A stretch of 64,000 bases of DNA, from the NCBI GenBank assembly GCA_045561295.1, contig JBJKYD010000012.1:27690-91689 (forward strand), in the 5' to 3' direction. Source of the stretch: Gammaproteobacteria bacterium. Its GTDB lineage: Bacteria; Pseudomonadota; Gammaproteobacteria; GCA-002705445; GCA-002716945. Below the pieces are notes generated by a model, which saw only the letters and a list, made by a program, of their open reading frames with translations, searched no databases and had not been told where the DNA came from. Positions 38,252 to 57,849 of the stretch are shown here, piece by piece (positions within the stretch are counted from its first letter, which is position 1; each line of letters starts with the position of its first letter). The translations under genes and the position numbers were made by a program.

Positions 38252-40131
38252 GATAATTTCTTTTTAAATCTTATGCTAAATATGGAACCTATAATCATAA
38301 ATATAGTACCTATCCATATGAATCTAATAAATGGTTTATCATATATTCTAAGGGACCATTTATTATCATCTATCATATTTCCTAGAGAGACATAGAGGTC
38401 CCTATCAATCCTCCCATGAATTCCAGCTTCTGTCATGGGTGATTCGCTTGAATGATAGAGTCTTTTTTCAGGATTAATCTCCGTTATGAACTGATTGTCT
38501 TTACTAACAAGTACTGATGCAATAATTGCATCATAATTAACTGATTTAAGTTCACTTAATTTTTCAAGTTTATATTCAAATAGACCAATTTTTTTCGATT
38601 CACCTACATTCAATACTAATTCTTTTTCTATTTTATTATTTTCAGAAATGCTGGCGCCTAGTATAAATATTGCTAATCCAAAATGAGCAAAGTACATACC
38701 TGTTCTATTTTTCAATTTAATTTTATTATCTAGGGAAGAAAATACATCATATAGAATGTTTACTATTATCCATGTTGCTGAGAATATTCCAATAAAGAAT
38801 AAAATAGAGCTAACAGAAAAAGTTAAAGACAAAATAATACTCAAAATCAAAATAACTACTAGTTGAATTACTTGTGAGTTTTTCGAACTTCTTGCTAAAA
38901 GAATAGGTATGTATCCTACTAATAACATTAAAGGAATCATGAGAGGTATGAAAACCGCATTATAGTATGGTACGCCTACTGAAATTTTCTCAAGACCAAG
39001 AACATCTAAAAATAAAGGATACATTGTGCCTAGAAGTATTGTAAACGTTGCAGTAACTAAAAGGATATTATTAAGCAAGAAAAAGCCCTCTTTAGAAAAA
39101 AGTGTAACTTCATTATCATCAACAAATTTTTTTGAATTCATGCTGTATATAATAAGTCCTCCTCCAATAAGAGCTAGTAACATGAGCAAAATGAAAATTC
39201 CGCGCGTTGGATCGCTGGCAAAAGAATGAACGGAAATTAAAATACCTGACCTTACTAGAAATGTTCCTAATAGACTAAGTGAAAATGTAAATATTGATAG
39301 AAGAATTGTCCAGCTTTTAAACATCCCCTTCTCACCAGTTGCTATTACAGAATGAAGAAGTGCGGTTGACATAAGCCACGGCATAAAAGATGCGTTTTCA
39401 ACGGGGTCCCAGAACCACCATCCGCCCCAACCTAATTCGTAGTAAGCCCACCAACTTCCTAAAGCAATACCTAGTGTTAAAAATGACCATGATGCTAAAA
39501 TCCAAGGTCTTATCCATTGTGCCCACTCTTTTTTAAAGTCGCTTTCGAAGCAGCATGCAATAGCAAAGGAAAAGACAACTGATAAACCAACATAACCCAT
39601 ATAGAGCATTGGTGGATGAACTATCAGTCCAAAGTCTTGGAGTAAAGGGTTAAGATCACTACCATCAATAGGAACAGTCATTGTTCTATCAAATGGATTC
39701 GATGTAGCAACAACAAATAATAGAAATCCAAGATTGAGTATACCCATCGTTGCTAGAAAATTGATACGTAAAGATTTATGTAAATCTTCACTAAATATAC
39801 TAGCTAAAAACATCCAAAAGCTCGAAACCACACACCAAAGAAGCATAGAACCCTCATGGCCGGCCCAAGCTGCAGAAATCTTATATATTAAAGGTAAGTT
39901 AGAATTAGAATTTTTCGCAACATAATCTAAAGAATAATCCTCACCAACAAAAGTAACGATAAGGCATATAAATGATATAAGTAGTATTGGGAAATGAAGT
40001 TTACTGGCTGACAATAAAATATTGCTAGAAACATTTAGGCCTGATACAAACTTTGGTGTAAGTAACAACATGCAGTTCATCAGACCTAGCAAAAGGAGAA
40101 AATAACCGATATAACCTATTTCAATAATCAT
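38248..40131 (-). CDS. ccmF: Heme lyase CcmF
   Basis: W.GHEGS, HPPMLYMGY, WGGWWFWDPVEN, SVHSFA. Confidence 0.98.
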   Translation of the reverse strand: MIIEIGYIGYFLLLLGLMNCMLLLTPKFVSGLNVSSNILLSASKLHFPILLISFICLIVTFVGEDYSLDYVAKNSNSNLPLIYKISAAWAGHEGSMLLWCVVSSFWMFLASIFSEDLHKSLRINFLATMGILNLGFLLFVVATSNPFDRTMTVPIDGSDLNPLLQDFGLIVHPPMLYMGYVGLSVVFSFAIACCFESDFKKEWAQWIRPWILASWSFLTLGIALGSWWAYYELGWGGWWFWDPVENASFMPWLMSTALLHSVIATGEKGMFKSWTILLSIFTFSLSLLGTFLVRSGILISVHSFASDPTRGIFILLMLLALIGGGLIIYSMNSKKFVDDNEVTLFSKEGFFLLNNILLVTATFTILLGTMYPLFLDVLGLEKISVGVPYYNAVFIPLMIPLMLLVGYIPILLARSSKNSQVIQLVVILILSIILSLTFSVSSILFFIGIFSATWIIVNILYDVFSSLDNKIKLKNRTGMYFAHFGLAIFILGASISENNKIEKELVLNVGESKKIGLFEYKLEKLSELKSVNYDAIIASVLVSKDNQFITEINPEKRLYHSSESPMTEAGIHGRIDRDLYVSLGNMIDDNKWSLRIYDKPFIRFIWIGTIFMIIGSIFSIRFKKKLS

Positions 40132-44656: not shown

Positions 44657-44956
44657 TCAAATAAAATTAGAAGCTGGTGGTCCACGAGTATGAAAGTTAG
44701 TGACTAAATATTCTTCAAAATCTTTAGATGGAATATTGAACAAGGTCTGACAAACACAATAGTGATTTTCGATGAAATACTTGGAATGCAACTTACCGCA
44801 TTGTCCACAAACTTGATCATGGTCATGATTATGGTCATGGTCATGGTCATGATGACAAATATGTTCTTGGTGACTTTGCACAGATTGATTATGTTTAACT
44901 ATATCTTCGAACATAATAAGGCATGCTAACAAAAAAGCGTATATTATGCGAGTCAC
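44657..44956 (-). CDS. His/Cys-rich leader protein ending in RGPP (DUF2946/CutF/CruR-like)
   Basis: Hydrophobic N-terminus, HHDHDHDHNHDHD, CGQC, HYCVC, C-terminal TRGPP; 29 nt before the receptor ATG. Confidence 0.75.
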   Translation of the reverse strand: MTRIIYAFLLACLIMFEDIVKHNQSVQSHQEHICHHDHDHDHNHDHDQVCGQCGKLHSKYFIENHYCVCQTLFNIPSKDFEEYLVTNFHTRGPPASNFI

Positions 44957-46550: not shown

Positions 46551-46928
46551 ATGTTCAGAGATAATGAATCAATTAAACTGGGGTTGATCACGCTTTTTGC
46601 TTCTTCATCAACACTCATATGTTGCGCTTTACCTGCTCTATTTGTTCTACTTGGAGCAGGAGCAACGTTTGCATCAATAGTGAATTTTTTCCCACAATTA
46701 ATCATCATCTCACAATATAAAATTACTATATCTATAATTACAGGTATTATTTTAATAATTGCAGGAATTTTAATAAAAAAAGCTTCGTTACTTCCATGCC
46801 CAATAGATCCAAGCTTAAAAGATACGTGTCTTAAAACAAGAAAAAGGTCGAAAGTTATTTATTTTATCTCTACAGCAATATTTGTTTTCGCTAGTTTTTT
46901 TACTTATATACTACCTATATACTTATAA
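46551..46928 (+). CDS. MerT/MerF-like 3-TM metal transport protein
   Basis: TLICCALP in the first TM; CP.D....C loop. Confidence 0.75.
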   Translation: MFRDNESIKLGLITLFASSSTLICCALPALFVLLGAGATFASIVNFFPQLIIISQYKITISIITGIILIIAGILIKKASLLPCPIDPSLKDTCLKTRKRSKVIYFISTAIFVFASFFTYILPIYL

Positions 46929-46929
46929 C

Positions 46930-47193
46930 ATGACAGAAAATCCAACACATAAAAAGCAACTAGCTTCATTAAAGAGGATTGAAGGCCAAATAAGAGGAAT
47001 TATTAATATGATTGATGATGGTAAATATTGCGTTGATGTTCTTAACCAAATTAAGGCAGCAAAATCAGCATTGGTATCGGTAGAGTCAAAAGTACTTAAA
47101 GTTCATATGGAATCATGCGTAAGGAGTTCATTTAAAAATAAAAAATCTCTAGATACGAAAGTTGATGAGCTTTTGAAGCTAATCAATAAGTAA
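46930..47193 (+). CDS. csoR: CsoR/RcnR family metal-sensing repressor
   Basis: LKRIEGQIRGI..M...YC.DVL.Q..A...H...C (x-C-H-C fingerprint). Confidence 0.88.
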   Translation: MTENPTHKKQLASLKRIEGQIRGIINMIDDGKYCVDVLNQIKAAKSALVSVESKVLKVHMESCVRSSFKNKKSLDTKVDELLKLINK

Positions 47194-47743
47194 TCTTATA
47201 TTTAATTCTATGATGATGAAGGTCTTTTGACATTTGTATCCTGATATCTTCTTTAAGACATTCATCAGCTATCTTTATTTCTTGGGATGTTAGCTCTTTT
47301 TTGTTGAGAGCTATAAATATATCCAAACCAAATCTAGATAATTCCCTTGTACCAAAATCATGATTTTTTCTTTCAAACCCAATTCTTACATCATCTATTG
47401 ATGTAGATAACATTTGAGCTGTTTTTTCATATGCTAAGGATAAAGGCCTGCCATCAAATATAAATTGCCATGTCTGAGCATTGATAAAAATATATTTAAT
47501 CTCTGTTTTAGACCTGCCCCATTTATCAATCAAGCCGAAGGCTTCTGATAAATGTATTTTATCTTTGGAATATTTGGCTAAAATCTCATCAATATAAAGT
47601 TGTAACTCTTCTGTACAGTCTGTTTTGTTAAGTATATGAGCCGAATATTCTTTGATTAACGCTTCAGCTAACTCAGCATTAGGATCATTTTTATATTTTT
47701 TTACGAGGTTTGTCTCAAATACTTTCCATTCATCATCAGTCAT
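47183..47743 (-). CDS. Hypothetical protein
   Basis: 186-aa ORF with TATAAT 7 nt upstream; no motif recognised. Confidence 0.7.
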   Translation of the reverse strand: MTDDEWKVFETNLVKKYKNDPNAELAEALIKEYSAHILNKTDCTEELQLYIDEILAKYSKDKIHLSEAFGLIDKWGRSKTEIKYIFINAQTWQFIFDGRPLSLAYEKTAQMLSTSIDDVRIGFERKNHDFGTRELSRFGLDIFIALNKKELTSQEIKIADECLKEDIRIQMSKDLHHHRIKYKITY

Positions 47744-47760
47744 TTGATATATTATAAATT

Positions 47761-47850
47761 ATGGATGGCTTCTTTGTATTATCTTTTTTTATAGGGGCAA
47801 TAGTTTTTGCAGTCATTATGATGTGCTTTGATGATAATACTGACATTTAA
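47761..47850 (+). CDS. Small membrane peptide (29 aa)
   Basis: MDGFFVLSFFIGAIVFAVIMMCFDDNTDI. Confidence 0.4.
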   Translation: MDGFFVLSFFIGAIVFAVIMMCFDDNTDI

Positions 47851-47851
47851 T

Positions 47852-48001
47852 ATGAATAAGAAAAACGCTAATACGGTGCCTATAGATAGTAAAGTGAAGA
47901 AAAAAGAGCGTGATAAAAAATTTGTTAAGGATTATCTAAAACCTGAGTGTGAAGAAGAGTTGTCTGAAGAAGAATATCCTAAAATTAAAGATCGCGACTA
48001 A
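47852..48001 (+). CDS. Small charged protein (49 aa)
   Basis: MNKKNANTVPIDSKVKKKERDKKFVKDYLKPECEEELSEEEYPKIKDRD. Confidence 0.45.
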   Translation: MNKKNANTVPIDSKVKKKERDKKFVKDYLKPECEEELSEEEYPKIKDRD

Positions 48002-48006
48002 TGTTT

Positions 48007-48423
48007 TTATTCAATATTTTTCATGGATACCCATGGCTCTTTAGGTTCAAGCTTTTCACCTTCTTGCAATAATTCAACGGAAATATTGTCTGGAGATTTT
48101 ACAAAAGCCATATAACCATCTCTTGGTGGATAATTAATCTTTATACCCATGTTTATAAGATGTTCACAGGTATCATATATATTTTTAACTTTATATGCGA
48201 TGTGTCCAAAATTTCTTGAGGACTCTTCTAAGCTATCACCATCCCAGTTATATGTAAGCTCTAATTCTGCATCCTCATTATTTGGAGCAGATAAAAAGAT
48301 AAGGGTGAATCTATCTTCTTCAAATTCCATTCTTCTTGCTTCTTTTAAGCCAAGTCCATCACAGTAAAATTTTAATGATTCCTCTACATCAGATACCCTA
48401 AGCATTGTGTGCAAATATTTCAT
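48007..48423 (-). CDS. gloA: Lactoylglutathione lyase (glyoxalase I)
   Basis: LHTMLRV, ELELTYNW, FGHIA, PPRDG.MAFV.SPD..SVELL. Confidence 0.9.
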   Translation of the reverse strand: MKYLHTMLRVSDVEESLKFYCDGLGLKEARRMEFEEDRFTLIFLSAPNNEDAELELTYNWDGDSLEESSRNFGHIAYKVKNIYDTCEHLINMGIKINYPPRDGYMAFVKSPDNISVELLQEGEKLEPKEPWVSMKNIE

Positions 48424-48492
48424 AAGAAACTACTATTCTAATACTTTAAACTATGTTAAAAATTTATAAATTATTTTTGTATATTTTTAATT

Positions 48493-48594
48493 ATGTCTGA
48501 TTTAGCAAAACTACTCAAAGGGTTTATTGTCGCTGTTATTATATTGACAGTCTTTGCATATGTTGGGGTTTATGTAATATCATTACTTATTTAA
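48493..48594 (+). CDS. Small membrane peptide (33 aa)
   Basis: MSDLAKLLKGFIVAVIILTVFAYVGVYVISLLI. Confidence 0.5.
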   Translation: MSDLAKLLKGFIVAVIILTVFAYVGVYVISLLI

Positions 48595-48650
48595 TTTCAT
48601 AGCAAGAAAAATTTATATTATTTTTTTCATTATTCAGGTTAATATGAATT

Positions 48651-48818
48651 ATGGTTAAATGGGAATATAAAACATTTGAGTGGGAAGTACTTAAACACGC
48701 ACTCAATGAAAGCCAAAAGCCGGAGAATCTAGGCGGACAAGGTTGGGAGCTGGTTTCAACCAATTATGATACAGATTACCGTGTCTGGGTCTTGATGTTC
48801 AAAAGGCCAATAGAATAA
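48651..48818 (+). CDS. DUF4177-like small protein (55 aa, not in ORF track)
   Basis: WEYK...LN...LG.QGWELVS...FKRP. Confidence 0.8.
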   Translation: MVKWEYKTFEWEVLKHALNESQKPENLGGQGWELVSTNYDTDYRVWVLMFKRPIE

Positions 48819-48828
48819 CTTAAATTAT

Positions 48829-48921
48829 TTATATTAGTGCTATTACCACAAAAACAATCAGTGCATATACGGCTAACTCTACAAATGGGCTTCCGTTTGG
48901 TCTTTCGTTAAAGAATTTCAT
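48829..48921 (-). CDS. Small membrane peptide (30 aa)
   Basis: MKFFNERPNGSPFVELAVYALIVFVVIALI; AGGGG RBS. Confidence 0.5.
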   Translation of the reverse strand: MKFFNERPNGSPFVELAVYALIVFVVIALI

Positions 48922-49033
48922 GTCTTTTCCCCTGCTAATGTTTGAACTTATTATTACACAAATTTATGGTCATATGTATATTTAGGGTTAAGATAAAGAT
49001 TATGAAATATATACTTAATGAGAGAGTTATAAT

Positions 49034-49396
49034 ATGAATTTAATAAAAACTATAGAAAAAGGATTACTAGGTGTGATTGCATTACTAACGATTGTTGCAA
49101 CCATACAAGAGATAATCAGTATATACGCGGTAGGCAGAGTGAACTTGCCTGATTTGTTATTACTGTTTATATACACAGAGGTTTTAGGAATGATAGGTGT
49201 GTTTTATGTGAGTAATAAGATACCTATCACATTGCCATTATTTATTGCCATGACGGCATTATCAAGATTGATAATACTACAAGGTAAAGACATGGAACCA
49301 AGTACATTAATTTATGAGGCAGGTGCGATATTATTAATTGCAATTGCTTGTCTGATTATTAGATATAGACCCCCTAATCAGAGCACAGAGTTGTGA
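49034..49396 (+). CDS. psiE: Phosphate-starvation-inducible PsiE family protein
   Basis: DLLLLFIYTEV.GM, P..IAMTALSR.II. Confidence 0.85.
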   Translation: MNLIKTIEKGLLGVIALLTIVATIQEIISIYAVGRVNLPDLLLLFIYTEVLGMIGVFYVSNKIPITLPLFIAMTALSRLIILQGKDMEPSTLIYEAGAILLIAIACLIIRYRPPNQSTEL

Positions 49397-49436
49397 TATT
49401 AATCGATATGAATCAAATCTCATTAAAACATTAAAA

Positions 49437-49461
49437 AATTAAGATTCATGGTCATGGGTGC
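49437..49461 (-). repeat. tRNA-Met 3'-end copy (att-like) A
   Basis: agattcatggtcatgggtg at 49442-49460 is identical to 56103-56121. Confidence 0.9.
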
Positions 49462-49562
49462 ATTTGTAACATTAATTCATTTGCCTATATCCGGGTACAA
49501 AAGCAATATTCATATGTGTTTCTTTATGCTTGGTACGTTCCTTGCATAATAATGAGGAGGCG

Positions 49563-51824
49563 ATGAAACGAATCTATAAAAGTTTATTAATACCACTACT
49601 TCTTCTTGCATCTATTGATATCTATGCTGCATGCACTATAGGCGGTGTTGCATATAATGAGGCTGGACGAGCTGGTGCAGGTGTGACAGTTGTTACAGGT
49701 ACTCCAGGTGGATTTGTAACCAAAGCCGATATTCAATCTTGGGTCCTTACTGATAATATAACAACGTGCGATGTCTCACGAATTACGGATATGTCTGAAC
49801 TGTTTATGGCCAAGGGAGATTTTAACCAAGATATTTCAAGTTGGGATGTGAGTAATGCGACTACTATGCAAGGTATGTTTATGCTCGCTTCTGTGTTTGA
49901 TCAAGATATTTCCAATTGGGATGTGAGCAGCGTGACTAATATGGCAACTATGTTTGAGCTCGCTAATATGTTTAACCAAGACATTTCGGGTTGGGATGTT
50001 AGCAGCGTGGTTGATATGACTGCTATGTTTTTTCGTACTAACTCCTTTAATCAAAATCTTGGAAGTTGGGATGTGAGTAATGTGTCAAGTATGAATATAA
50101 TGTTTGTGTTAACATCCCTATCTAGCGATAACTATGATGAAATCTTAGTTGGCTGGAGTCAGTTATCATTGAAAACTGGTGTGACCCTTGAAGTCACAGG
50201 TGTTCAGTATACTGCAGTTTCTGCACGAAACGTTTTAACAACGACTTATAGCTGGACTATTTTGGATGGTGGTCAAGGAGCAGATATCTCTACTCCAAGT
50301 ATCACTATTACATCCTCAACAGTTGCTTCTGGTGCTTCAAGTTCTGATGCCTCCATTGCATTAATATTTACATTAAGTGAAGGTTCATCTAATTTTGCAC
50401 AAGCTGATATTACAGTCACTAATGGATCTTTATCAAGCTTCAGCAAAACATCATCAAAAATATATACAGCAACTTTCACTCCGTCAGCTTCAGGACAAAC
50501 AACTATCAATGTGGCTGCAAATACTTTTACCGATTATGCAGGAAATAATAATACGGCGGCTACTCAATTTACATGGACTTATACCGGCGAATCCTCAGAC
50601 CCAGGCGAATCCTCAGACCCAACAGAAACAGACCCAACAGAAAAAGCAGATGTCAAAACATCGGTCATCGTAATGTCTCATATCGTAACTAATTTCGCAC
50701 AAGCTAATCAAACAGTCATCGAAAATAGACTGCAATGGTTATCAAGACAAAAAGATAACGCTAAAACTTCTTATCAAGGTATTAAATTTAAGTTCGCAAA
50801 TCCTATTCTTAATAAAATTGCAAACAACAAAGAAGGATCCTATTCACCTGATCTTAATCAGATGGTAAACAGTGTCAATCAAGACCATGATCTACTTACT
50901 GCATCTAAACAAATGATTACATCTGATGCGACTGATTTATTAATCAGTGAAGCAGCTAAAGTAAAAGGTGAATATATTGGAACGCTTAATCCTGTTTTTA
51001 AAGCTATCGATGGATGGTCTGTCTGGACTGCAGGACAAATCACTATCGGTAAAGTCAAAGGAAATAGCACAAGCTCTGAATCTGATATAGACGATCAAAT
51101 GCTATCTATCGGACTGGATAAAAAAAATAAGTATGGCCTTGTGGGCTATATGTTATCGGTTGGACAAGCAAGAGCTGATATTAAAGGTAATGCAAGTGAA
51201 ATTAAATCTGATAACTACAGTCTTGCAACTTATAGAAGTTATTTATATGAAACAAGAAGTCTTGATGTGATGACAGGGGTAAGTTTATTTAAAATGGATA
51301 CTGTAAGAATCGATGGATCAGATCGCTTGGAGGGTAGACGTGATGTAAGACAAATTTATCTCATGACTAAATACAATGATCACAAAATTAAACTCAATCA
51401 CTTTACGCTAACCCCTTACGGGAGAGTATCTCTTGCATATAGTGAACTCAAAGCCTTTAGTGAATCAGGAGCATCAACAGCACTCCATTATAAAAAACAA
51501 AGTATAAGCGATACCTTATTGTCAGTTGGAACAGATATCAAGTTTAATAAAACTTACAAACATGGGACCTTATCTCCTTATGCTTTAGCTGAATACTCAG
51601 TCGATGTCTCGGATAGCTCAACCGCTGATATGTATTATGTTGGTCAATCTACCGAATACAGTTTAAGAATCAATAAAAAAGCTAGCAGTATTTACAAACT
51701 TGGTATAGGTGCTGATTATCTATCCAACAATGGGTTGACCTCATCATTGTATTATGAACGAGCACAAGCGATCAACTCAGGTCATAATGACAAACTTAAT
51801 TTAAGCATTAACTTCAAGTTTTAA
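49563..51824 (+). CDS. Autotransporter with DUF285/BspA-like repeats and an Ig-like domain
   Basis: GAGGAGG RBS; signal peptide; [11 protein letters not shown] repeats; T/S-rich Ig-like domain; beta-barrel ending INFKF. Confidence 0.88.
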
Positions 51825-51873
51825 AACATTCTGCATGAATAAGTTGTAGTTTTGGTTATATGAATTATTTCTT

Positions 51874-51898
51874 AATTTAGATTCATGGTCATGGGTGC
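51874..51898 (-). repeat. tRNA-Met 3'-end copy (att-like) B
   Basis: tagattcatggtcatgggtg at 51878-51897 is identical to 56102-56121; 24/25 identical to copy A. Confidence 0.9.
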
Positions 51899-51946
51899 TA
51901 CCGAATTTCCCTATTTATAGCTATATATGAGTAGTGAAGATTCCTG

Positions 51947-52000
51947 TATTCCCATCCATATTCCCATTTTTTATTAACGTATACCCTCGTATATACCCAT
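51947..52000. repeat. Four TATWCCC(AT) direct repeats, putative integrase arm-type sites
   Basis: Copies at 51947, 51959, 51980, 51992 (two pairs, 12-bp period), about 50 bp from att copy B. Confidence 0.6.
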
Positions 52001-52100
52001 GTGATTAATATTCAGTGGCGTTTTGAAAACAAAGAATCCAGTGTTTATGCGGGTTGTAGTTAAGGTCTTTTGGCATAGATTGTGCATGTTTTAACATGTA

Positions 52101-52886
52101 GTGAGTAAAATATCTAAAAAAAAATATGATAGTGAATTGAAAGCACTAAGGGTTGAACTTGTTAAACTACAAGAATGGATCAAACAAGAAGGGCTGAAAG
52201 TTGCTGTTTTATTTGAGGGCAGAGATGCAGCAGGTAAAGGTGGGGTAATAAAAAGAATTACTGAGCCACTCAATCCAAGAGTCTGTAGAGTGGTTGCTCT
52301 TTCGACACCAACAGAGCGTGAAAAGAGCCAGTGGTATTTCCAGAGATATGTATCTCACTTACCCTGTGCAGGTGAGATAGTATTGTTTGATAGAAGTTGG
52401 TATAACAGATCTGGCGTAGAGAAAGTCATGGGGTTCTGTTCTGCTGAAGAGTATGATGAATTTCTAAGATCGTGTCCGATTTTTGAGCAAATGCTAATAA
52501 GGTCAGGAATAATACTTATAAAATATTGGTTTTCTGTTAGTGACGAGGAACAAGAAAGGCGATTTGAGGCGAGATTACAAGATCCAACAAAACAATGGAA
52601 ACTTAGTCCAATGGACTTAGAGTCGAGAGCAAAATGGATAGAGTATTCTCAAGCTAAAGATAATATGTTTAATTATACTGACACAAAAAAATCGCCATGG
52701 AGAGTTGTTCATGCTGACGATAAGAAGAAAGCTAGACTTAATTGCATAAGAGATCTTCTAGCTTCGATCTCCTATGAGGCTATTAAATATAAAAAAATTG
52801 ACTTACCAAAACGACAATCAGATAGAGGGTATGCAAGACCTCCCATGTCTGATCAGTCCTTTATAAAAGATTATTACAATGATTAA
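52101..52886 (+). CDS. ppk2: Polyphosphate kinase 2
   Basis: FEGRDAAGKGG, QWYFQRY, FDRSWYNR, WKLSPMD. Confidence 0.96.
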   Translation: MSKISKKKYDSELKALRVELVKLQEWIKQEGLKVAVLFEGRDAAGKGGVIKRITEPLNPRVCRVVALSTPTEREKSQWYFQRYVSHLPCAGEIVLFDRSWYNRSGVEKVMGFCSAEEYDEFLRSCPIFEQMLIRSGIILIKYWFSVSDEEQERRFEARLQDPTKQWKLSPMDLESRAKWIEYSQAKDNMFNYTDTKKSPWRVVHADDKKKARLNCIRDLLASISYEAIKYKKIDLPKRQSDRGYARPPMSDQSFIKDYYND

Positions 52887-52917
52887 GGCTAGTAGAATAT
52901 CTATATTTGATATAATA

Positions 52918-52936
52918 GTCATGGGTGGACTTGAAC
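52918..52936 (-). repeat. tRNA-Met T-arm/acceptor copy (att-like) C
   Basis: gtcatgggtggacttgaac is identical to 56112-56130. Confidence 0.88.
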
Positions 52937-52947
52937 ATTCCTCTATT

Positions 52948-52992
52948 TTTTAATAAAAATGTCACTGAGATATAATAATTTAAGACTATAAT
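52948..52992 (+). promoter_or_regulatory. Putative Pho box and -10 element of phoX
   Basis: TTTTAAT-aaaa-ATGTCAC-tgag-ATATAAT (11-bp period) ending 10 nt before TATAAT at 52987. Confidence 0.5.
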
Positions 52993-52998
52993 TTTTAG

Positions 52999-54177
52999 AT
53001 GGACTCCACCAAAAGATTTTTTTTAAGAACATCTTTATATGCAGGTTTATACACCTCAGCATTGACTAGTTTTGCTTCTGCAAAAGATTCCGGCTATTCA
53101 CTCAAATTGAATACAGCTGATCAAAACGACATTATGCTTCCTAACGGATTCACATCAAGGATTATTGCGATATCGGGACAACCAGTTCTAAACTTGTCAG
53201 GAAAAAACTGGCATTTTGCTCCAGACGGCGGGCATGTTTTTAAAACATTAAACGGCGGATGGATTTATGTTTCAAATTCAGAAGTCAAAAATAATGGTGG
53301 TGTAGCATCGATAGTTTTCGATAATAATGGAGAGATAGTTGATCATAGAATAATTTGCCACAACACAAATAATAACTGTGCTGGAGGGCCTACCCCATGG
53401 AATACCTGGCTGACATGTGAGGAAGTACCTAATGGATATATTTATGAATGTGATCCTGCTGGAGTCAAAGTTCACAAGAAGCTGCCAAACCTTGGAAAAT
53501 TCATGCATGAGGCAGCGTGTATAGATTCAGAAAGCAAGATTATGTATATGACGGAAGATGACAAGAGTGGAGGTTTTTATAGATTTATACCTTTAAATAA
53601 ATTTTCAAAAACACCTTATATGAAAGGCCGTCTAGAGGTTGCTCATATAAAAGATGATAAAGTTGTTTGGAATAAAATACCTCAGCCATCAGCCTCATAT
53701 ATAGAAATTAAAAATGGTCATAAAATTACTATAAAACCTTTAATGTTTCGAGCTCCCAATAAGAGAACAATGTATACCCCTTTTAATAGAGGCGAAGGGA
53801 TGAGTATAATTGATAAAAAGGTTTATTTTTCCACTACTGGTGACAATAGAATAAATGAATATGATATAGAACAAAATAGTCTATCAGTTATTTATAACGG
53901 CACTGGGCCATTAACTGACCCGGATAATATTTCTGTAGGACCCTCTGGTTCATTGGTTGTAGCTGAAGATTCAGGAAATATGGAACTTGTTGCAGTCTCT
54001 AAAAAAATGAGAAAAATGTTTCCAATACTCAGAGTTACTGGACATAAAAACTCTGAAATTACTGGCCCTTCTTTTACGGAGGATTTCACTAGACTATACT
54101 TCTCATCACAAAGAGGCAGAGACGGGAAGCATGGAATAACTTATGAAGTGAGAGGTCCTTTCACATCTATTCTGTAG
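52999..54177 (+). CDS. phoX: PhoX-family (DUF839) alkaline phosphatase
   Basis: PDG, SNSE, NCAGGPTPWNTWLTCEE, G.F.HEA, TED, PDN, AED, SEITGP.F, SSQ. Confidence 0.88.
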   Translation: MDSTKRFFLRTSLYAGLYTSALTSFASAKDSGYSLKLNTADQNDIMLPNGFTSRIIAISGQPVLNLSGKNWHFAPDGGHVFKTLNGGWIYVSNSEVKNNGGVASIVFDNNGEIVDHRIICHNTNNNCAGGPTPWNTWLTCEEVPNGYIYECDPAGVKVHKKLPNLGKFMHEAACIDSESKIMYMTEDDKSGGFYRFIPLNKFSKTPYMKGRLEVAHIKDDKVVWNKIPQPSASYIEIKNGHKITIKPLMFRAPNKRTMYTPFNRGEGMSIIDKKVYFSTTGDNRINEYDIEQNSLSVIYNGTGPLTDPDNISVGPSGSLVVAEDSGNMELVAVSKKMRKMFPILRVTGHKNSEITGPSFTEDFTRLYFSSQRGRDGKHGITYEVRGPFTSIL

Positions 54178-54204
54178 ATTAGGATATTTTAAATCACCCT
54201 AGAT

Positions 54205-54297
54205 TTAATACTTCAAGTAGCCCGTAAGATATAATATAAGAGCTATAAGAGCAGAAAGACCCAGTATGACTAATATTATAGTTATTATAATTTCCAT
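54205..54297 (-). CDS. Small membrane peptide (30 aa)
   Basis: MEIIITIILVILGLSALIALILYLTGYLKY. Confidence 0.45.
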   Translation of the reverse strand: MEIIITIILVILGLSALIALILYLTGYLKY

Positions 54298-54330
54298 AAA
54301 TGAACTTTAAGATATTTTTTTTATGTTTTT

Positions 54331-54957
54331 ATGAATCAATTATTAAATAATTTTTACGAGAGGAAAGATAAATATTATGAACTATTAATTATTTTTATTA
54401 TTTTACCAATCTTCTCAATTGTAACTGGTCAGGAGCCAATAAATAACTTTATATCAATGTATATCATTTCGATATTCTATTGGTACTTTCTATATCGAAA
54501 TAAAGTAAAAATATTTAATAACAATAAATATTCAGAGCGACATGTGATAATAACATTTGTAGCTATATTTATTTTTAGCTTTAGCTATTGTTATGATGCG
54601 GATAATTTTATGGTTTTCCCAAGAGAAAACCCTTTAACATTTCTATTAGTCATCTTCCTCTATCCTTTCCTTAGCGTAATTCCACAAGAGATAATTTTTA
54701 GAAAATATTTCTTTTTTAAATTTAATGCCTTAATGCCTAGAAACTACCTAATTTTTATTAACGGTCTGGTGTTTTCTCTGGCACATGTTTTCTTCAATAA
54801 TTATATTGCAATTATTTTTACTTTTTTTGGTGGCATCTATTTATCCTGGAGCTATCTTAGAAGTGAGTCATTAGCTTTGGTTATTTATGAGCATACTTTA
54901 TTTGGAATATTCATTTTTGCTTCTGGGTTAGGTAGATATTTTTATCATGCAATATAG
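54331..54957 (+). CDS. CPBP/Abi family intramembrane metalloprotease
   Basis: PQEIIFR, FSLAH, EHTL.G. Confidence 0.85.
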   Translation: MNQLLNNFYERKDKYYELLIIFIILPIFSIVTGQEPINNFISMYIISIFYWYFLYRNKVKIFNNNKYSERHVIITFVAIFIFSFSYCYDADNFMVFPRENPLTFLLVIFLYPFLSVIPQEIIFRKYFFFKFNALMPRNYLIFINGLVFSLAHVFFNNYIAIIFTFFGGIYLSWSYLRSESLALVIYEHTLFGIFIFASGLGRYFYHAI

Positions 54958-54995
54958 ATAATTATCCCCTTCTTAGGGAGACTGTTCCTGATTAG

Positions 54996-56000
54996 TTACT
55001 CGTTTGTTAAAACTGCGCGATACCTAATCTTATTGGATTTAACTTTATCTATAGCTTTATTCACATCTTTGAATGAAAATTTTTCGATTATAGGTTTAAT
55101 GCCTTTATTGGCAGCAATTTTTAACATTTCTTTCATCATTTTTCTGCTACCACCTGGATTGCCTGAAATTTTGATACGTTTCATAATTAAACTAAAAGCA
55201 TGAATACTTATCGGGCTAGGAGGAACTCCAACGAAACAAATATTTCCATCGACATCTAATGTATCTGCTAAAGATGTCCAATCTAAATCAGCGTGAGCAG
55301 TTACAAGTATAAAATCAAAACTATTTTTATAGTCTTTTAAATCTTTATAAGTAATAACTTGATTGGCTCCAAATTTTTTAGCTTCTGTAAGTTTATTTTT
55401 AGAGGATGTTATGGCTGTTATATGAAAATCAAGAGCTTTACCATATTGAATGCCAAGATGCCCCAAACCACCGATTCCTAAAACTGCAACTCTAGATTTT
55501 GATTTAACCTTATACCCTCGATATGCACCATGTACCGTCCAACCTGCGCACATTAATGGGGCTGCATGCTCAGATTTCAGTTTAGGCGGTATTGGAAAGA
55601 CGACGCTTTCATCTACTATTACATGATCTGCAAAACCACCATTTCTACCAACGGCAGTCATTTCGGGTGCGCTGCACATGTTATCTCTATCAGATTTACA
55701 ATAAGTACATTTCCCACAGACCTTTGAGAACCAACCTACACCAACCCTTTGACCAATTTTTAAACCTTTGACTAATCTTCCTACAGACGAAATGGTTCCA
55801 ACTACTTCATGTCCAGGGATAAATGGGTATTGAGATATGCCCCAATCATTATCAATAAGGTGTATATCGCTGTAACAGATGCCACAATGAGTAATATCTA
55901 CAACAACCTCTTTGTGCCCTGTCTTTTCATGGCAATAAGTTTGTTTAGTTAACTTTTCTTTAGATTTTTTCGGACCATATCCGGTAACTGTTAAGGTCAT
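54996..56000 (-). CDS. NAD(P)-dependent Zn alcohol dehydrogenase (CAD/YahK-like)
   Basis: CGICYSD, PGHEVVG, C..C..C.......C, PLMCAG, GIGGLG, RYRAVL. Confidence 0.92.
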   Translation of the reverse strand: MTLTVTGYGPKKSKEKLTKQTYCHEKTGHKEVVVDITHCGICYSDIHLIDNDWGISQYPFIPGHEVVGTISSVGRLVKGLKIGQRVGVGWFSKVCGKCTYCKSDRDNMCSAPEMTAVGRNGGFADHVIVDESVVFPIPPKLKSEHAAPLMCAGWTVHGAYRGYKVKSKSRVAVLGIGGLGHLGIQYGKALDFHITAITSSKNKLTEAKKFGANQVITYKDLKDYKNSFDFILVTAHADLDWTSLADTLDVDGNICFVGVPPSPISIHAFSLIMKRIKISGNPGGSRKMMKEMLKIAANKGIKPIIEKFSFKDVNKAIDKVKSNKIRYRAVLTNE

Positions 56001-56109
56001 GATTTTAGTTTATCTCAAAATCTCATCAAGGTATACCTTGACTTAGATTTAGTCATAGGCGGCATAACTTCACTATAAGACTTGGTGTAAATTTCTATTT
56101 CTAGATTCA

Positions 56110-56183
56110 TGGTCATGGGTGGACTTGAACCACCGACCGCAGCGTTATGAGTGCTGTGCTCTAACCAACTGAGCTACATGACC
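56110..56183 (-). tRNA. tRNA-Met(CAT), probably elongator; CCA not encoded
   Basis: GGTCATGTAGCTCAGTTGGTTAGAGCACAGCACTCATAACGCTGCGGTCGGTGGTTCAAGTCCACCCATGACCA folds as a cloverleaf; G1-C72 pair argues against initiator; Ile2 not fully excluded. Confidence 0.92.
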
Positions 56184-57260
56184 TTATATATTAAATCTAA
56201 AATAGATTACATCGCCTTCACAAACGATATAATCTTTACCTTCTTGTCTCCAAACGCCATTAGCTTTTGAAGCCTGCTCGCTTCCACTTTCTATGTAATC
56301 ATTATATGAAACAGTTTCAGCTCTTATAAATCCTTTTTGGATGTCTGTGTGTATGATACCTGAACATTCCTGAGCATTAAAATACTTTTTTGCTGCCCAT
56401 GCTCTTGATTCTTTTTCGCCCGATGTAAAAAATGTTTTAAGGTCAAGAAGACTGTAACCCGTTTTGATAATTTTTGATAATGCAGACTCATCTATACCAA
56501 ACTCTTCCATAAATTCTTTTTTTTCGTCTTCCGAGAGCTCATCAAGATCTGTTTCCACTTTAACATTCACCTGAACTAATTTTATATATTCTGGCATTGA
56601 TTCAATGAAGTCACTAATTTCCTGTTTTGAAGTATTTTCATTAATATTAGCAATCACAAACATTGGTTTTTGAGTTAATAATTTAATGTCAGGGAAAAAT
56701 TCTTGAATCTTCTCTAAATCTTTTTTTTGTAAAAAATTATTACTATTCAGTTTATCGAGAGCATTTATCGCTTCTTCTTTTAAAAGATTTTTTTCTTTTT
56801 CAGATGTTTTACTTTTAGTAATTCTATTTGTAATACTTTCTAATGTAGTAATATCCGATAATATCAATTCTGTATTAATATCATTAAAGTCTGACACAGG
56901 GTCAGGTTTCCCGTTGACATGAATAATATCATCATCAATAAAGAATCTTACTACATGTGCTATGGCATCAGTATTTCTGATATGTGTAAGAAAATCATTT
57001 CCAAGCCCCTCTCCCTTAGATGCTCCTTTTATTAATCCAGCAATATCCACAAACTCAATCACTGCATTAATTTTACTTTTTGATGAGTTTAATTCTGATA
57101 ATTTATCTAATCTGTCATCCGGTACTTCAACAGTTGCTATGTTTGGATCAATTGTACAAAAAGGGAAGTTTTTAGCATCAATTTTTTGTGAAGTTAATAA
57201 ATTAAATATTGATGACTTACCTACGTTTGGCATACCTACCAAACCACATTTAAATCCCAT
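56184..57260 (-). CDS. ychF: Redox-regulated ATPase YchF
   Basis: GMPNVGKS, FPFCTIDPN, DIAGL, GEGLGN.FL, IHTD..KGFIRAE, EGKDYIV..GDV. Confidence 0.97.
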   Translation of the reverse strand: MGFKCGLVGMPNVGKSSIFNLLTSQKIDAKNFPFCTIDPNIATVEVPDDRLDKLSELNSSKSKINAVIEFVDIAGLIKGASKGEGLGNDFLTHIRNTDAIAHVVRFFIDDDIIHVNGKPDPVSDFNDINTELILSDITTLESITNRITKSKTSEKEKNLLKEEAINALDKLNSNNFLQKKDLEKIQEFFPDIKLLTQKPMFVIANINENTSKQEISDFIESMPEYIKLVQVNVKVETDLDELSEDEKKEFMEEFGIDESALSKIIKTGYSLLDLKTFFTSGEKESRAWAAKKYFNAQECSGIIHTDIQKGFIRAETVSYNDYIESGSEQASKANGVWRQEGKDYIVCEGDVIYFRFNI

Positions 57261-57849
57261 TGTTATCACCATTTAAATTATTCATAAAATTTGTATAAGA
57301 GCCATCTAGTAAATCTTGAGAATTTTGAATGATATTCTCTATCCCCTCTAATATTTGTTTTTTATCATCAGGTGATGGCTTACCCAATACATAGGAAATG
57401 ACATCATCTTTATGCGTAGGCTTACCGATTCCTATTTTTAATCTCCAAAAATCTTTTGTACCAATTTTTTCTATTATATCTTTTATACCATTGTGTCCAC
57501 CACTTCCACCTGAGAATTTGAGCCTAATTTTGCCGGCGGCTAAATCTAAATCATCGTAAGCGACAATTATCTGAGATGGTGTGATATTTTTATTTTTAAT
57601 GAAGTTTTTTAAAGGCGTCCCGCTATCATTAATAAAAGTCATTGGTTTAAGTAATTTTATATCTATACCCTCTGAATGATAATCAGTATCACAAAAACCT
57701 TTTTTCAAGTTATCGTTGAAGTGGATTCGTAGGCTATCAACCAAAGAGTCAATGAACCAAAAACCTATGTTATGTCTTGTATTAAGAAATTTATTATCAG
57801 GATTACCTAATCCTACAATCAATGCTGGAGGGTTATCTTCAGGAATCAT
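57250..57849 (-). CDS. pth: Peptidyl-tRNA hydrolase
   Basis: VGLGNP, TRHNIGF, KPMTFIN.SG, DDLDL, GGHNG. Confidence 0.96.
   Translation of the reverse strand: MIPEDNPPALIVGLGNPDNKFLNTRHNIGFWFIDSLVDSLRIHFNDNLKKGFCDTDYHSEGIDIKLLKPMTFINDSGTPLKNFIKNKNITPSQIIVAYDDLDLAAGKIRLKFSGGSGGHNGIKDIIEKIGTKDFWRLKIGIGKPTHKDDVISYVLGKPSPDDKKQILEGIENIIQNSQDLLDGSYTNFMNNLNGDNNGI

Follow-up and report, generated by a model that had tools for sequence, protein, structure and literature searches.

An additive flexible genomic island, probably built by tyrosine integrases, at the 3' end of a tRNA(CAT) gene in a marine gammaproteobacterium

Several genes beside a tRNA gene with anticodon CAT are preceded by copies of that tRNA's 3' end, which raises the question of how the copies arose and whether the genes between them arrived as discrete units. 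The window, i.e. the whole 64,000-nt stretch that was analysed (contig JBJKYD010000012.1, positions 27,690 to 91,689), belongs to the draft genome G000. We propose that its region from about 47.2 to 56.1 kb is probably an additive flexible genomic island, built by tyrosine integrases at the tRNA(CAT) 3' end from a two-layer pool of units. The tRNA lies on the minus strand, so that 'downstream' of it means lower coordinates, and its sequence is identical in all nine genus genomes in which it was located. ARAGORN labels it as Met, its closest E. coli match (86% identity) is annotated as tRNA-Ile, and judged by its sequence it may be a tRNA-Ile2 instead. The parts of the locus are:

46882-47193, plus strand: CsoR/RcnR-type repressor (NCBIfam), last conserved gene on the far side
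49034-49441, plus strand: psiE (49034-49396) and a 45-nt arm remnant preceding copy A
49442-49460, plus strand: copy A, distal core, 19 nt, tRNA orientation
49461-51877, plus strand: unit 1, single-gene autotransporter (ORF 49530-51824)
51878-51897, plus strand: copy B, core, 20 nt, tRNA orientation
51898-51970, plus strand: arm of class R2 adjoining copy B, with two TATTCCCAT repeats
51956-52059, plus strand: remnant of the opposite arm of an R2-type unit, with no core after it here
52054-52917, plus strand: ppk2 module (ORF 52101-52886)
52918-52936, plus strand: copy C, 19 nt, tRNA orientation, trailer half degenerate
52931-54189, plus strand: PhoX-family single-gene unit, 1.26 kb (ORF 52999-54177, 392 aa)
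54331-54957, plus strand: Rce1-like CAAX protease, within segment 54331-56102
54996-56000, minus strand: Zn-dependent alcohol dehydrogenase (ADH), same segment
56023-56102: tRNA-proximal arm end, same segment
56103-56121, plus strand: core at the intact tRNA, 7 nt of trailer and the tRNA's last 12 nt
56110-56183, minus strand: tRNA with anticodon CAT, integration target, 3' end toward the island

A sequence-only reading of this DNA had reported three exact 19-20 nt copies in the orientation of the tRNA, and re-reading the sequence recovered them at these positions. Copies A and B each consist of 12 nt of the tRNA 3' end and 7-8 nt of trailer; as described, they agree at 24 of 25 positions, trailer included, and bracket one gene, the autotransporter ORF, at a spacing of 2437 nt (repeat family D2). 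Copy C is indeed a shifted version that takes in the T-loop region, spanning the T-arm to the acceptor without the last 2 nt (repeat family D4, 78% over 41 nt). The suggestion that this shift reflects a second crossover specificity is not supported: at the site of copy C, L101 has the complete last 21 nt of the tRNA, and with the tRNA-like bases after copy C the arm of the PhoX unit itself begins. Each of the three copies is intergenic, and they stand upstream of plus-strand genes (autotransporter, ppk2 and PhoX-family, respectively), again in line with that reading. With up to three mismatches allowed, the 19-mer occurs three times in the window, at A, B and the tRNA, whereas 100 shuffled versions averaged 0.01 matches. 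The 10-mer common to all four sites had five against 0.00 expected, the fifth (position 38432) covering only 10-11 nt within a gene. In the genome-wide search that had been suggested (blastn-short, 1,026,543 bases), A, B and C were the only copies of the tRNA 3' part to reach 19 nt or more, the next-best match being 13 nt, so such 19-mers are not common in the genome. Together with the shuffle counts, this excludes chance for the tRNA-end copies.

The variable region extends from the repressor, which has homologues in all seven genus loci that reach the far side, up to the tRNA. Its most distal unit is the widely shared psiE unit, with 96-98% amino-acid identity for psiE in G004, G006, G011 and G009 and 60-88% for the core neighbours. 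In G011, psiE lies 146 nt from the tRNA. Its homology between genomes stops at the stop codon and not at the core, and G004 has an R1 arm immediately after the stop, with no intervening core. The autotransporter carries DUF285 repeats, Big_12 and a beta-domain, and its unit terminates in the 24-nt arm-end motif GGTTATATGAATTATTTCTTAATT. A homologue of this unit was absent from the loci of the 15 relatives compared; it is 93% identical in L065, where the left homology limit (49449) falls within the core of copy A, and in L105 the gene is placed behind another arm class.

Among the three copies, arm-type repeats are kept only at copy B, where the two TATTCCCAT repeats (51947-51955 and 51959-51967) have a spacing of 12 nt. 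The right flank of copy A is of the 'CATTTGTAAC' type and weakly conserved, and a search to the right of the cores found no arm repeat pair at copies A and C. Arms of the copy B type, 86-99% identical, follow cores in L083, L112, L086, L097, L107, L063 and L096. Homologues of the remnant at 51956-52059 stop right before cores in L107, L115, L112 and L063, and one contig of the public run X1 fuses 52059 to the tRNA at 56110. The ppk2 product is a PPK2 (Pfam 1.6e-106; TIGR03707 1.2e-114) whose module joins its neighbour within an arm and not at a core, homology with L101/L078 beginning at 52052-52054. The PhoX unit is 93% identical across its exact span in G009 (L059), L064 and L103, each time with a degenerate core before it and a full core after it, and its end adjoins four different partners. 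The ADH is 91% identical in G005. The last 86-99 nt before the tRNA are 96-100% identical at the start of L094, L122, L083, L105 and L098, in which other units come after this shared arm end; the core at 56103-56121 is the entry point of new units. As the earlier reading held, the array is integrase-less, no ORF between 49034 and 56000 matching an integrase family.

Related genomes show the locus to be an 'additive' genomic island that is hypervariable. In seven genus genomes it measures 1.3, 1.4, 3.3, 4.7, 8.9, 9.6 and 10.2 kb, its gene content is mostly unshared between them, and in nine of 24 family relatives the contig ends no more than about 1.1 kb from the tRNA. Partial tRNA-end copies were also found in G001, G006 and G009, and those of G013 and G024 bear acceptor variants of their own. 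In L101, which is 98-99% identical to the window, 49409-52053 is absent and replaced by 181 other bases; the breakpoints lie 33 nt left of copy A and 156 nt right of copy B, i.e. off the cores, and this difference is therefore attributed to another kind of recombination. Breakpoints in relatives coincide with the repeats, as had been anticipated, at the limits of the PhoX unit, but not at the L101, psiE and ppk2 junctions.

A metagenome scan with the 19-mer returned 65 contigs with 72 sites (18 intact tRNAs, 51 partial copies and three contig ends); eight contigs were set aside as unrelated and the architecture was seen in 57. This population evidence comes mostly from short-read metagenome contigs, in which chimeras are possible at repeats. 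Of 56 partial sites, 39 have an exact direct-repeat pair in the 130 nt that follow the core on its right, compared with 223 of 3000 random 130-mers from the same genome; in 36 of these 39 pairs the repeats are spaced 12 nt, and the pair begins 48-61 nt from the core. The motifs form three classes. From their position and pattern we infer that the pairs are arm-type sites, which an integrase would bind. Integrase-less units with the same arm class on both ends include L088/L123, L094, L083, L107, L103, L075, L068, L110 and one in G006.

Recurring unit ends are joined at the 19-nt core to many different partners. When flanks of 40 nt were compared, 15 of the 16 left clusters that recur met at least two right clusters; at 250 nt three of six did, and 13 different families precede the tRNA across 16 sites. 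These junctions support the earlier proposal that units are joined at the tRNA-derived core by site-specific recombination. The existence of cargo-only cassettes is likewise borne out: 30 of 35 complete units have no integrase match, and 20 of the 35 are no longer than 2.6 kb. In the larger ORFs of integrase-less units, Pfam detected cargo only (a two-component system, an HNH/EVE protein, a C-5 methylase, UvrD-like helicases and a GT2/GtrA protein), and the units examined contained no integrase fragments. Gene orientation within units is mixed.

The same tRNA and core also host autonomous elements of 4-5 kb with their own tyrosine integrase (L115/L073, L077 and L081). The integrase has 437 aa in L115/L073 (Arm-DNA-bind_3, 1.8e-20; Phage_integrase, 1.2e-15) and 437 aa in L081, and that of L077 is 64% identical to that of L115. 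L115/L073 is a 4.08-kb element with the integrase and a TerS-like gene, present as three tandem copies in one contig; no replication module was identified among the three L115 element ORFs scanned. These elements share the arm motifs of the cassette units on both arms, and in them the motif occurs three times, partly inverted, between the integrase gene and the core. For R2, the arm class adjoining copy B, no integrase was found. L094 is a clean insertion into a window-identical background: a 5112-bp integrase-less insertion around which the 23-nt core (56102-56124) is duplicated, with flanks 100% identical to the window over 99 and 98 nt. Its arms (147 and 166 nt) share 92% and 97% identity with the L077 element's arms, and the cargo between them is wholly different. 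Circle junctions of integrase-less units were not observed.

The tyrosine integrase for which a search had been suggested exists in the population, as cognate integrases at the same tRNA, but not in G000, where the only matches are two Xer-like ones and a 144-aa arm-domain fragment and no cognate integrase for the island units was found in the assembly. G000 has two full PF00589 matches, as do nearly all 37 family genomes, none of which has one at the mapped tRNA(CAT) positions; many of these assemblies break at the locus.

On the reading that we prefer, an incoming unit would bring its own core of about 19 nt (the tRNA's last 12 nt and about 7 nt beyond) and recombine with the intact tRNA end, which would restore the tRNA and shift older units outward, to give the order psiE, copy A, autotransporter, copy B, ppk2, copy C, PhoX, Rce1-like protease, ADH, tRNA. 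The ppk2 module would have arrived by recombination inside an arm. The population-wide pool would have a first layer of autonomous 4-5 kb elements with a heterobivalent integrase (an arm-binding and a catalytic domain), one of them resembling a phage satellite through its TerS-like gene, and a second layer of many non-autonomous 0.6-7 kb units that hold cargo only and keep the core and often arm-type repeats. Integrases of autonomous relatives would move the latter, either in trans or, once units have accreted in tandem, in cis. The earlier idea of cassettes mobilised in trans largely stands for the population (L115/L073, L077, L081, L094), but the window's own array is partly decayed. Because of this partial erosion and the lack of a cognate integrase in the assembly, the array is probably static at present.

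The units could also all be decayed autonomous elements that lost their integrases by deletion and spread as relics vertically or by homologous recombination. We regard this as unlikely, even if the missing arm sites at copies A and C, the ppk2 junction inside an arm, the off-core breakpoints of L101, the integrase remnant elsewhere in the genome and the coreless R1 arm after psiE in G004, which has the form of a deletion scar, fit such decay. Fragmented integrases and extra partial tRNAs are likewise described for tycheposon islands in the available part of a preprint (10.1101/2020.12.28.424599). Relics would not readily account for the many units of 2.6 kb or less, several with matching arms on both sides, for the same unit ends meeting many partners exactly at the core, or for the lack of integrase fragments in the units examined. 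L094 argues against decay as well, its arms being 92-97% identical to those of an integrase-bearing element around different cargo in a clean insertion.

Site-specific integration might play no part, if homologous or illegitimate recombination between flanking genes shaped the locus and the paired repeats are regulatory sites, e.g. response-regulator boxes. OmpR/PhoB-type boxes are also paired direct repeats about one helical turn apart, the window's cargo is phosphate-related (psiE, ppk2 and the PhoX-family protein), and the breakpoints in L101 and at psiE lie away from cores. We nevertheless consider this very improbable, since the repeats keep a fixed offset from the tRNA-derived core whatever the cargo (defence genes, adhesin, regulators), the motif recurs, partly inverted, in the arm beside the integrase gene of autonomous elements, and the core is duplicated around the L094 insertion. 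Movement by the host's XerC/XerD, as in integrase-less elements that exploit Xer at dif, has still less to recommend it: these are the only complete tyrosine recombinases in the assembly, but the site is a tRNA end and not dif, and the arm-type repeat pairs, which match integrases that have an arm-binding domain, indicate heterobivalent integrases. A chance repeat or assembly artefact can practically be dismissed, even for a draft genome of 19 contigs with 6.8% estimated contamination, given the 0.01 matches expected from shuffles, the same architecture in other genomes and 57 metagenome contigs, and contigs from public runs that bridge copy A (X1 record 1), copy B (X1 record 4 and X7 record 27) and copy C (X1 record 5 and X7 record 29), those at B and C being independent and from runs of different studies (X1 is possibly the sample from which the window's genome came).

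Among known systems, integrons share with the island an ordered array of small, mostly single-gene units, a tyrosine recombinase, a short site and entry at one end. The island lacks intI, attI and Pc, its sites are direct tRNA-end copies with arm-type repeats and not attC hairpins, its genes have mixed orientation and the integrases are heterobivalent and P4/lambda-like; the earlier description as 'integron-like' therefore fails in the literal sense and is an analogy only. Tycheposons of Prochlorococcus, as far as the preprint's available text describes them, likewise integrate at tRNA genes with partial tRNA flanks, displace older elements outward in tandem, carry nutrient-acquisition cargo and include PICI-like terS members, but have their own integrase by definition (937 of 937 were found via integrases) and usually a replication module. 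That text attributes integrase-less island DNA to imprecise excision, whereas here discrete units keep core and arms (10.1101/2020.12.28.424599).

CIMEs (cis-mobilizable elements) of streptococcal ICE/IME islands, where accretion-mobilisation is described, have, according to the available passages, lost their integration and transfer genes while keeping attL and attR. They form tandem arrays with autonomous elements at the 3' end of a tRNA and can be mobilised by a neighbour's integrase, but they belong to Firmicutes, depend on conjugative transfer and usually measure many kilobases (PMC5704250). The units here are often single-gene, 0.6-2.6 kb long and in a 1 Mb marine genome, and the vehicle is likely a phage-satellite-like element with TerS and not a conjugative one. 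Marine VEIMEs and PICI-like elements resemble L115/L073, known here from sequence, as small tandem elements with an integrase and a TerS-like gene. VEIMEs, whose monomers range from less than 5 kb to 16.8 kb, are packaged in concatemeric form, and about 20% have no integrase and may borrow one from elsewhere; the main text, as available, does not contain the word 'tRNA', so tRNA targets go unmentioned there (PMC9618062).

Islands of this general kind have been described before, as the additive flexible genomic islands of Alteromonas, 'Ca. Actinomarinales' and 'Ca. Methylopumilus', which share the fixed tRNA-adjacent hotspot and strain-specific sets of gene cassettes (PMC4898812, PMC7771536, PMC10872708). 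The available passages of these papers describe no integrase arm sites in cassettes and no cognate autonomous elements, and 'integrase' occurs in them zero (PMC4898812, PMC7771536) and one (PMC10872708) times; here, in contrast, the cassettes fall into arm classes and can be connected with relatives that carry an integrase. What is less described is the non-autonomous layer seen at this locus, in which many units without a recombinase still keep their docking sites.

A tRNA gene with anticodon CAT lies on the minus strand at 56110-56183 (ARAGORN), with its 3' end pointing to lower coordinates. Three partial copies of this end in the same orientation, noticed by the sequence-only reading, were confirmed when the sequence was read again:

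49442-49460, in the orientation of the tRNA, copy A
51878-51897, in the orientation of the tRNA, copy B
52918-52936, in the orientation of the tRNA, copy C

Copies A and B consist of the final 12 nt of the tRNA followed by 7-8 nt of its trailer; they lie 2437 nt apart and are identical at 24 of 25 positions, as had been noted. Copy C is a 19-nt stretch that runs from T-arm to acceptor. With up to three mismatches the 19-mer occurs three times in the window against 0.01 expected, and a genome-wide BLAST search of the tRNA 3' end showed that such 19-mers are not common: in the whole 1.03 Mb draft genome copies of at least 19 nt are A, B and C only, and the next best match has 13 nt. Chance is therefore not the explanation of the copies. 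A 28-mer from trailer to T-arm matched the tRNA alone at up to three mismatches, because any one copy spans just part of it. Two weaker candidates were taken as chance matches, one of 10-11 nt inside a gene at 38432 and the other of 11-12 nt at 44818-44852 within a short coding repeat. This repeat (GGTCATG units, 44814-44849) belongs to an ORF at 44657-44956 that adjoins genes for a ZnuD-like TonB-dependent receptor and CopZ/CsoR-type proteins, and it may encode a His/Asp-rich metal-binding stretch. ARAGORN labels the tRNA as Met from its CAT anticodon, one of three CAT tRNAs in the genome. The best E. coli match (86%, 65 nt) is annotated as tRNA-Ile, and judged by this similarity the integration target may be tRNA-Ile2 (lysidine type).

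The order of the island is psiE, copy A, autotransporter, copy B, ppk2, copy C, a PhoX-family gene (392 aa), an Rce1-like protease, a zinc alcohol dehydrogenase and the tRNA, beyond which lie ychF and pth. The surrounding gene order ispE, tRNA-Gln, prs, ctc, pth, ychF, seen together with a TonB-dependent receptor, is one that we take to be gammaproteobacterial, possibly SAR86-like. The autotransporter gene contains four tandem 75-nt repeats (DUF285 units, 49821-50120). Contigs from public runs make several skips and back-steps across them, so the number of repeats probably varies in the population.

Comparison with related genomes showed that the block is not fixed, which agrees with the sequence-only reading. 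All 12 genus genomes and all 24 family relatives searched have the tRNA(CAT)-ychF junction, and in nine of the 24 relatives the contig ends no more than about 1.1 kb from the tRNA, which is what a variable, repeat-bearing spot would lead one to expect. In the seven genus genomes whose contigs cover the island side, the distance from the tRNA to the last conserved gene (homologues of 46882-47193) was 1.3, 1.4, 3.3, 4.7, 8.9, 9.6 and 10.2 kb, and gene content was largely unshared. Homologues of the autotransporter, ppk2 and the Rce1-like gene were absent from the loci of all 15 relatives, and the dehydrogenase was found again in one genome (91%). psiE is present in four genomes with 96-98% amino-acid identity, against just 60-88% for the core neighbours, and in one of the relatives (G011) it lies 146 nt from the tRNA. 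Its homology across genomes ends at the stop codon (gene at 49034-49396), which looks like a recent exchange of psiE alone. Partial copies of the tRNA end also occur in three relatives (G001, G006, G009), and in two others (G013, G024) the copies bear the host's own acceptor-stem variant. In yet another relative (G003, contig C2 near 309,900; L017/L044) the tRNA gene is without its last 7 nt, with ATTCTAA instead of TGGTCAT, and the 12-mer core is absent from the entire genome; the target may have been damaged or hit by a mis-integration, or the assembly may have made a false join at the core.

A scan of metagenomes with the 19-mer core returned 65 contigs with 72 sites (18 intact tRNAs, 51 partial copies and three contig ends). 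Eight of the 65 contigs (L072, L089, L092, L121, L111, L126, L118 and L125) were set aside before counting, as their flanks resembled neither the tRNA nor any arm family; four of them were GC-rich. To the right of the partial copies, the flanks can be grouped into a few families. At 39 of 56 sites the first 130 nt right of the core contain an exact direct-repeat pair, compared with 223 of 3000 random 130-mers from the same genome, and 36 of these 39 pairs have a 12-nt spacing and start 48-61 nt from the core. The repeats form three classes: TTTGTACACT (R1), TATTCCCAT (R2) and CAGTACCCAA (R4). For the 53 sites with enough flank, R1 was counted 15 times, R2 10 times and R4 nine times, and 19 sites had none. 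In the window, copy B has an R2 pair (51947-51955 and 51959-51967); the same search of the flanks of copies A and C gave no pair. R1 arms also contain a conserved hairpin-like inverted repeat between core and repeat pair (CACCCC, 11 nt, GGGGTG; for example in the right flanks at L066 901 and L097 4366), which could be a bending-protein site, an excisionase site or a terminator. Viral contigs scanned with the 19-mer core gave no match. Scans with the patterns of the repeat pairs gave five contigs for R2, none for R1 and two for R4, mostly tandem repeats in unrelated viral MAGs, and none contained the core.

Most units between two cores carry no integrase. By tblastn this holds for 30 of 35 complete units, and 20 units are 2.6 kb or shorter; the five integrase-bearing units represent two distinct elements. 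Pfam searches of the larger ORFs in integrase-less units found cargo only: a response regulator with histidine kinase, an HNH/EVE protein, a C-5 methylase, UvrD-like helicases and a GT2/GtrA-like protein. In nine integrase-less units the two ends share one arm class. The clearest case is a contig (L094) in which a 5112-bp integrase-less unit is bracketed by a duplicated 23 nt (window 56102-56124), with the first 99 nt and the last 98 nt of the contig 100% identical to the window around the tRNA-proximal core. This unit shares only its two arms with an integrase-bearing element on another contig (L077), 147 nt at 92% and 166 nt at 97%.

The junctions at the core are also shuffled. When sites were clustered by 40-nt flanks, 15 of the 16 left clusters that recur were joined to at least two right clusters and seven of the eight recurring right clusters to at least two left clusters, counts that are partly inflated by a 24-nt arm-end motif common to different units. 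The clustering was therefore repeated with 250-nt flanks. Several partners were then found for three of six recurring left families, the end of the PhoX unit was joined to four different partners, and 13 different families preceded the tRNA in 16 sites.

Integrase-bearing elements with the same core do exist. On one metagenome contig (L115), a partial copy and the intact tRNA enclose a unit of 4080 bp. It has a TerS-like gene (Terminase_2, small subunit, 2.2e-08, over the Pfam cut-off) and encodes a 437-aa tyrosine integrase with arm-binding, central and catalytic domains. Judged by Pfam, the element thus combines an integrase with a packaging-redirecting gene, as satellites do; the three ORFs scanned (integrase, TerS-like gene and one without a family) included no replication gene. 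The same unit occurs three times in tandem on another contig (L073), two of the units being identical and the third having five mismatches and one indel, a pattern that a tandem array, a concatemer or a loop in the assembly could each produce. The integrase of the L077 element is 64% identical to that of L115, and a third one (27% identical) is encoded in a 5017-bp unit with R1 arms (L081). In the arm from integrase gene to core, the integrase-bearing elements contain the class motif three times, partly inverted. Arm-type sites in such a layout are typical of lambda-like and P4-like attachment sites, and since the layouts match we regard the class motifs as putative arm-type sites of the integrases.

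The sequence-only reading had supposed an integrase acting in trans, and the genome was searched for one. In the window, no ORF of 47183-57849 matched an integrase family. The whole genome contains only two Xer-like, Xer-sized frames with PF00589, both on other contigs, and a cognate integrase was not found in the assembly, which is 92% complete. A 144-aa ORF on a further contig (C7, 21173-21607; L129 5174-5608) has the arm DNA-binding domain of an integrase (Pfam 8e-22) and is without the catalytic domain. Its neighbours are genes for a KAP P-loop NTPase and a GIY-YIG-like protein, and it looks like the remains of an integrase within a further island-like stretch. PF00589 matches in 37 family genomes were nowhere at the mapped tRNA(CAT) positions; additional integrases were near tRNA-Glu (G004, G005) and tRNA-Arg (G008). 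Beside tRNA-Glu(TTC), an element of about 4.5 kb (L055 9064-13615 on G004 contig C3, and L056 on G005 contig C34) encodes a 402-aa tyrosine integrase (L055) and five small ORFs, so small integrase elements do live in the genus, at another tRNA. Against genome contigs, the L115 integrase had just two relatives, with 27-29% identity, in unrelated phyla. Elsewhere in the window's own genome, tRNA-Ser(GGA) (contig C18, 1029-1115) is followed about 1 kb downstream by a 16-nt copy of its 3' part (2126-2141), which makes it a candidate for a second small additive site. On contig C14 an identical 30-nt end of this tRNA may reflect the estimated contamination of 6.8% or a duplicated region.

Copy C, with its shifted stretch of the tRNA, had been read as a possible sign of two crossover specificities. 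The window and one relative (G009) have 52931-54189 in common at 93% identity, and the left limit of this homology falls inside copy C and the right limit 12 nt past the PhoX stop codon; in the relative a full core follows the right limit. The same 1.26 kb PhoX unit is present on two metagenome contigs (L064, L103). On a third (L101) copy C equals the entire last 21 nt of the tRNA, from which the window differs by one G-to-A change. The additional tRNA-like bases of copy C are the start of the PhoX unit itself, so that a separate crossover specificity is not needed, and we did not adopt it. A scan of viral contigs with a 22-mer inside the tRNA gave one match, a contig of 9396 bp (L061, IMGVR_UViG_3300033553_000547) that has the same stretch at both ends, including 29 nt identical to the 3' part of the tRNA, a longer tRNA-internal identity than in copies A and B. 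It encodes a 434-aa integrase and an S49 peptidase; the element is probably circular, and its attachment site would suit this type of tRNA. It was rejected as the source of copy C because the element type and the left flank are different.

Not every boundary in the island coincides with a core. Firstly, in L101, which is 98-99% identical to the window, 181 other bases replace 49409-52053 (copies A and B, the autotransporter and the R2 arm), with breakpoints 33 nt and 156 nt off the cores. Secondly, in the relative G004 an R1 arm directly follows the psiE stop codon with no core between. Thirdly, at 51956-52059 the window has the arm from the other end of an R2 unit, and ppk2 begins there with no core after the arm. 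Lastly, another metagenome contig (L105) has the autotransporter gene behind a different arm class. Arm-internal recombination and small deletions therefore shape the array too, and the window's own array is eroded. At least half of the stretch is present in twenty marine runs from eight studies, and evidence from runs was taken from assembled Logan contigs of four of them. Contigs from runs of different studies bridge copies B and C. Depth over 49402-51911 was lower than over 52163-55927 in all four runs, but per-contig depth cannot rank the parts. The joints 49421 to 51874 (X1, X4), 49389 to 51874 (X7) and 51873 to 52942 (X4) are ambiguous, because little more than the repeated core makes up their short side. 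A further joint, 49401 to 52031 (X3), is similar to the form of L101.

The locus belongs to a known kind of island. Additive flexible genomic islands are described as hotspots beside tRNAs in which a direct repeat of the tRNA end marks the cassettes (PMC4898812, PMC7771536, PMC10872708). The locus described here is likewise a tRNA-adjoining hotspot whose cassettes have copies of the tRNA end, and relatives have the same tRNA-adjoining position with differing combinations and numbers of cassettes and with tRNA-end copies. The integrase-less units could be compared with CIMEs, described as decayed elements with attL and attR kept (PMC5704250), and with marine phage satellites, of which about a fifth have no integrase (PMC9618062). 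The units do have attL/attR flanks and no integration or transfer genes, and in the window the flanks are present in part (an arm at B only). That a neighbouring or related element's integrase may move them, as with CIMEs, is hinted at only indirectly, by the L094 insertion polymorphism and the arms it shares with L077. Tycheposons integrate in tandem at tRNAs with their own integrase, and integrase-less island DNA was put down to imprecise excision (10.1101/2020.12.28.424599). Integration at a tRNA with partial repeats is found here as well, and the L115/L073, L077 and L081 elements have their own integrase, but 30 of 35 units and the window do not. The defining features of an integron are absent at this island: no intI with attI beside the array, with no integrase family in any ORF of 47183-57849, and no attC, the unit boundaries being direct copies of the tRNA end and the inverted repeats in the region weak and away from these boundaries. 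Cargo-only units joined at the core, as in the proposed integron-like capture, do occur.

Overall, we consider it fairly probable that site-specific accretion built this additive island and that its integrase-less units are moved by the integrases of related elements. The sequence-only reading is partly supported: additive, site-specific accretion is upheld, a second specificity is not needed, and 'integron-like' holds as an analogy. More tentatively, and with slightly less than even confidence, we propose a tRNA-anchored gene-capture platform in streamlined marine bacteria, in which the units are miniature non-autonomous integrative elements moved by the integrases of satellite-like elements. 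Units of one or a few genes would relate to satellite-like integrase elements as MITEs do to insertion sequences. Every unit would retain the shared 19-nt tRNA-derived core together with class-specific arm-type sites, and use of the same core by at least three integrase/arm classes would allow different classes to be stacked and reshuffled in one array. Mobilisation would take place in trans or in cis by integrases encoded on phage-satellite-like elements of 4-5 kb, and these elements may also ferry units between cells. The available passages of the literature did not combine miniature single-gene units with class-specific arms, several classes on one core and matching autonomous satellite-like elements.

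At issue is how the tRNA-linked islands of abundant, streamlined ocean bacteria acquire their integrase-less bulk, here phosphate-scavenging genes, an adhesin, and defence and regulatory genes in discrete units. Since the units keep a core and putative docking repeats and have autonomous relatives with matching arms, this question becomes testable with named integrases on named substrates. If true, the proposal would supply a concrete mechanism by which additive islands gain their integrase-less bulk, and an integrase-free cell, such as the one described here, would hold units ready to move once a satellite-like element arrives.
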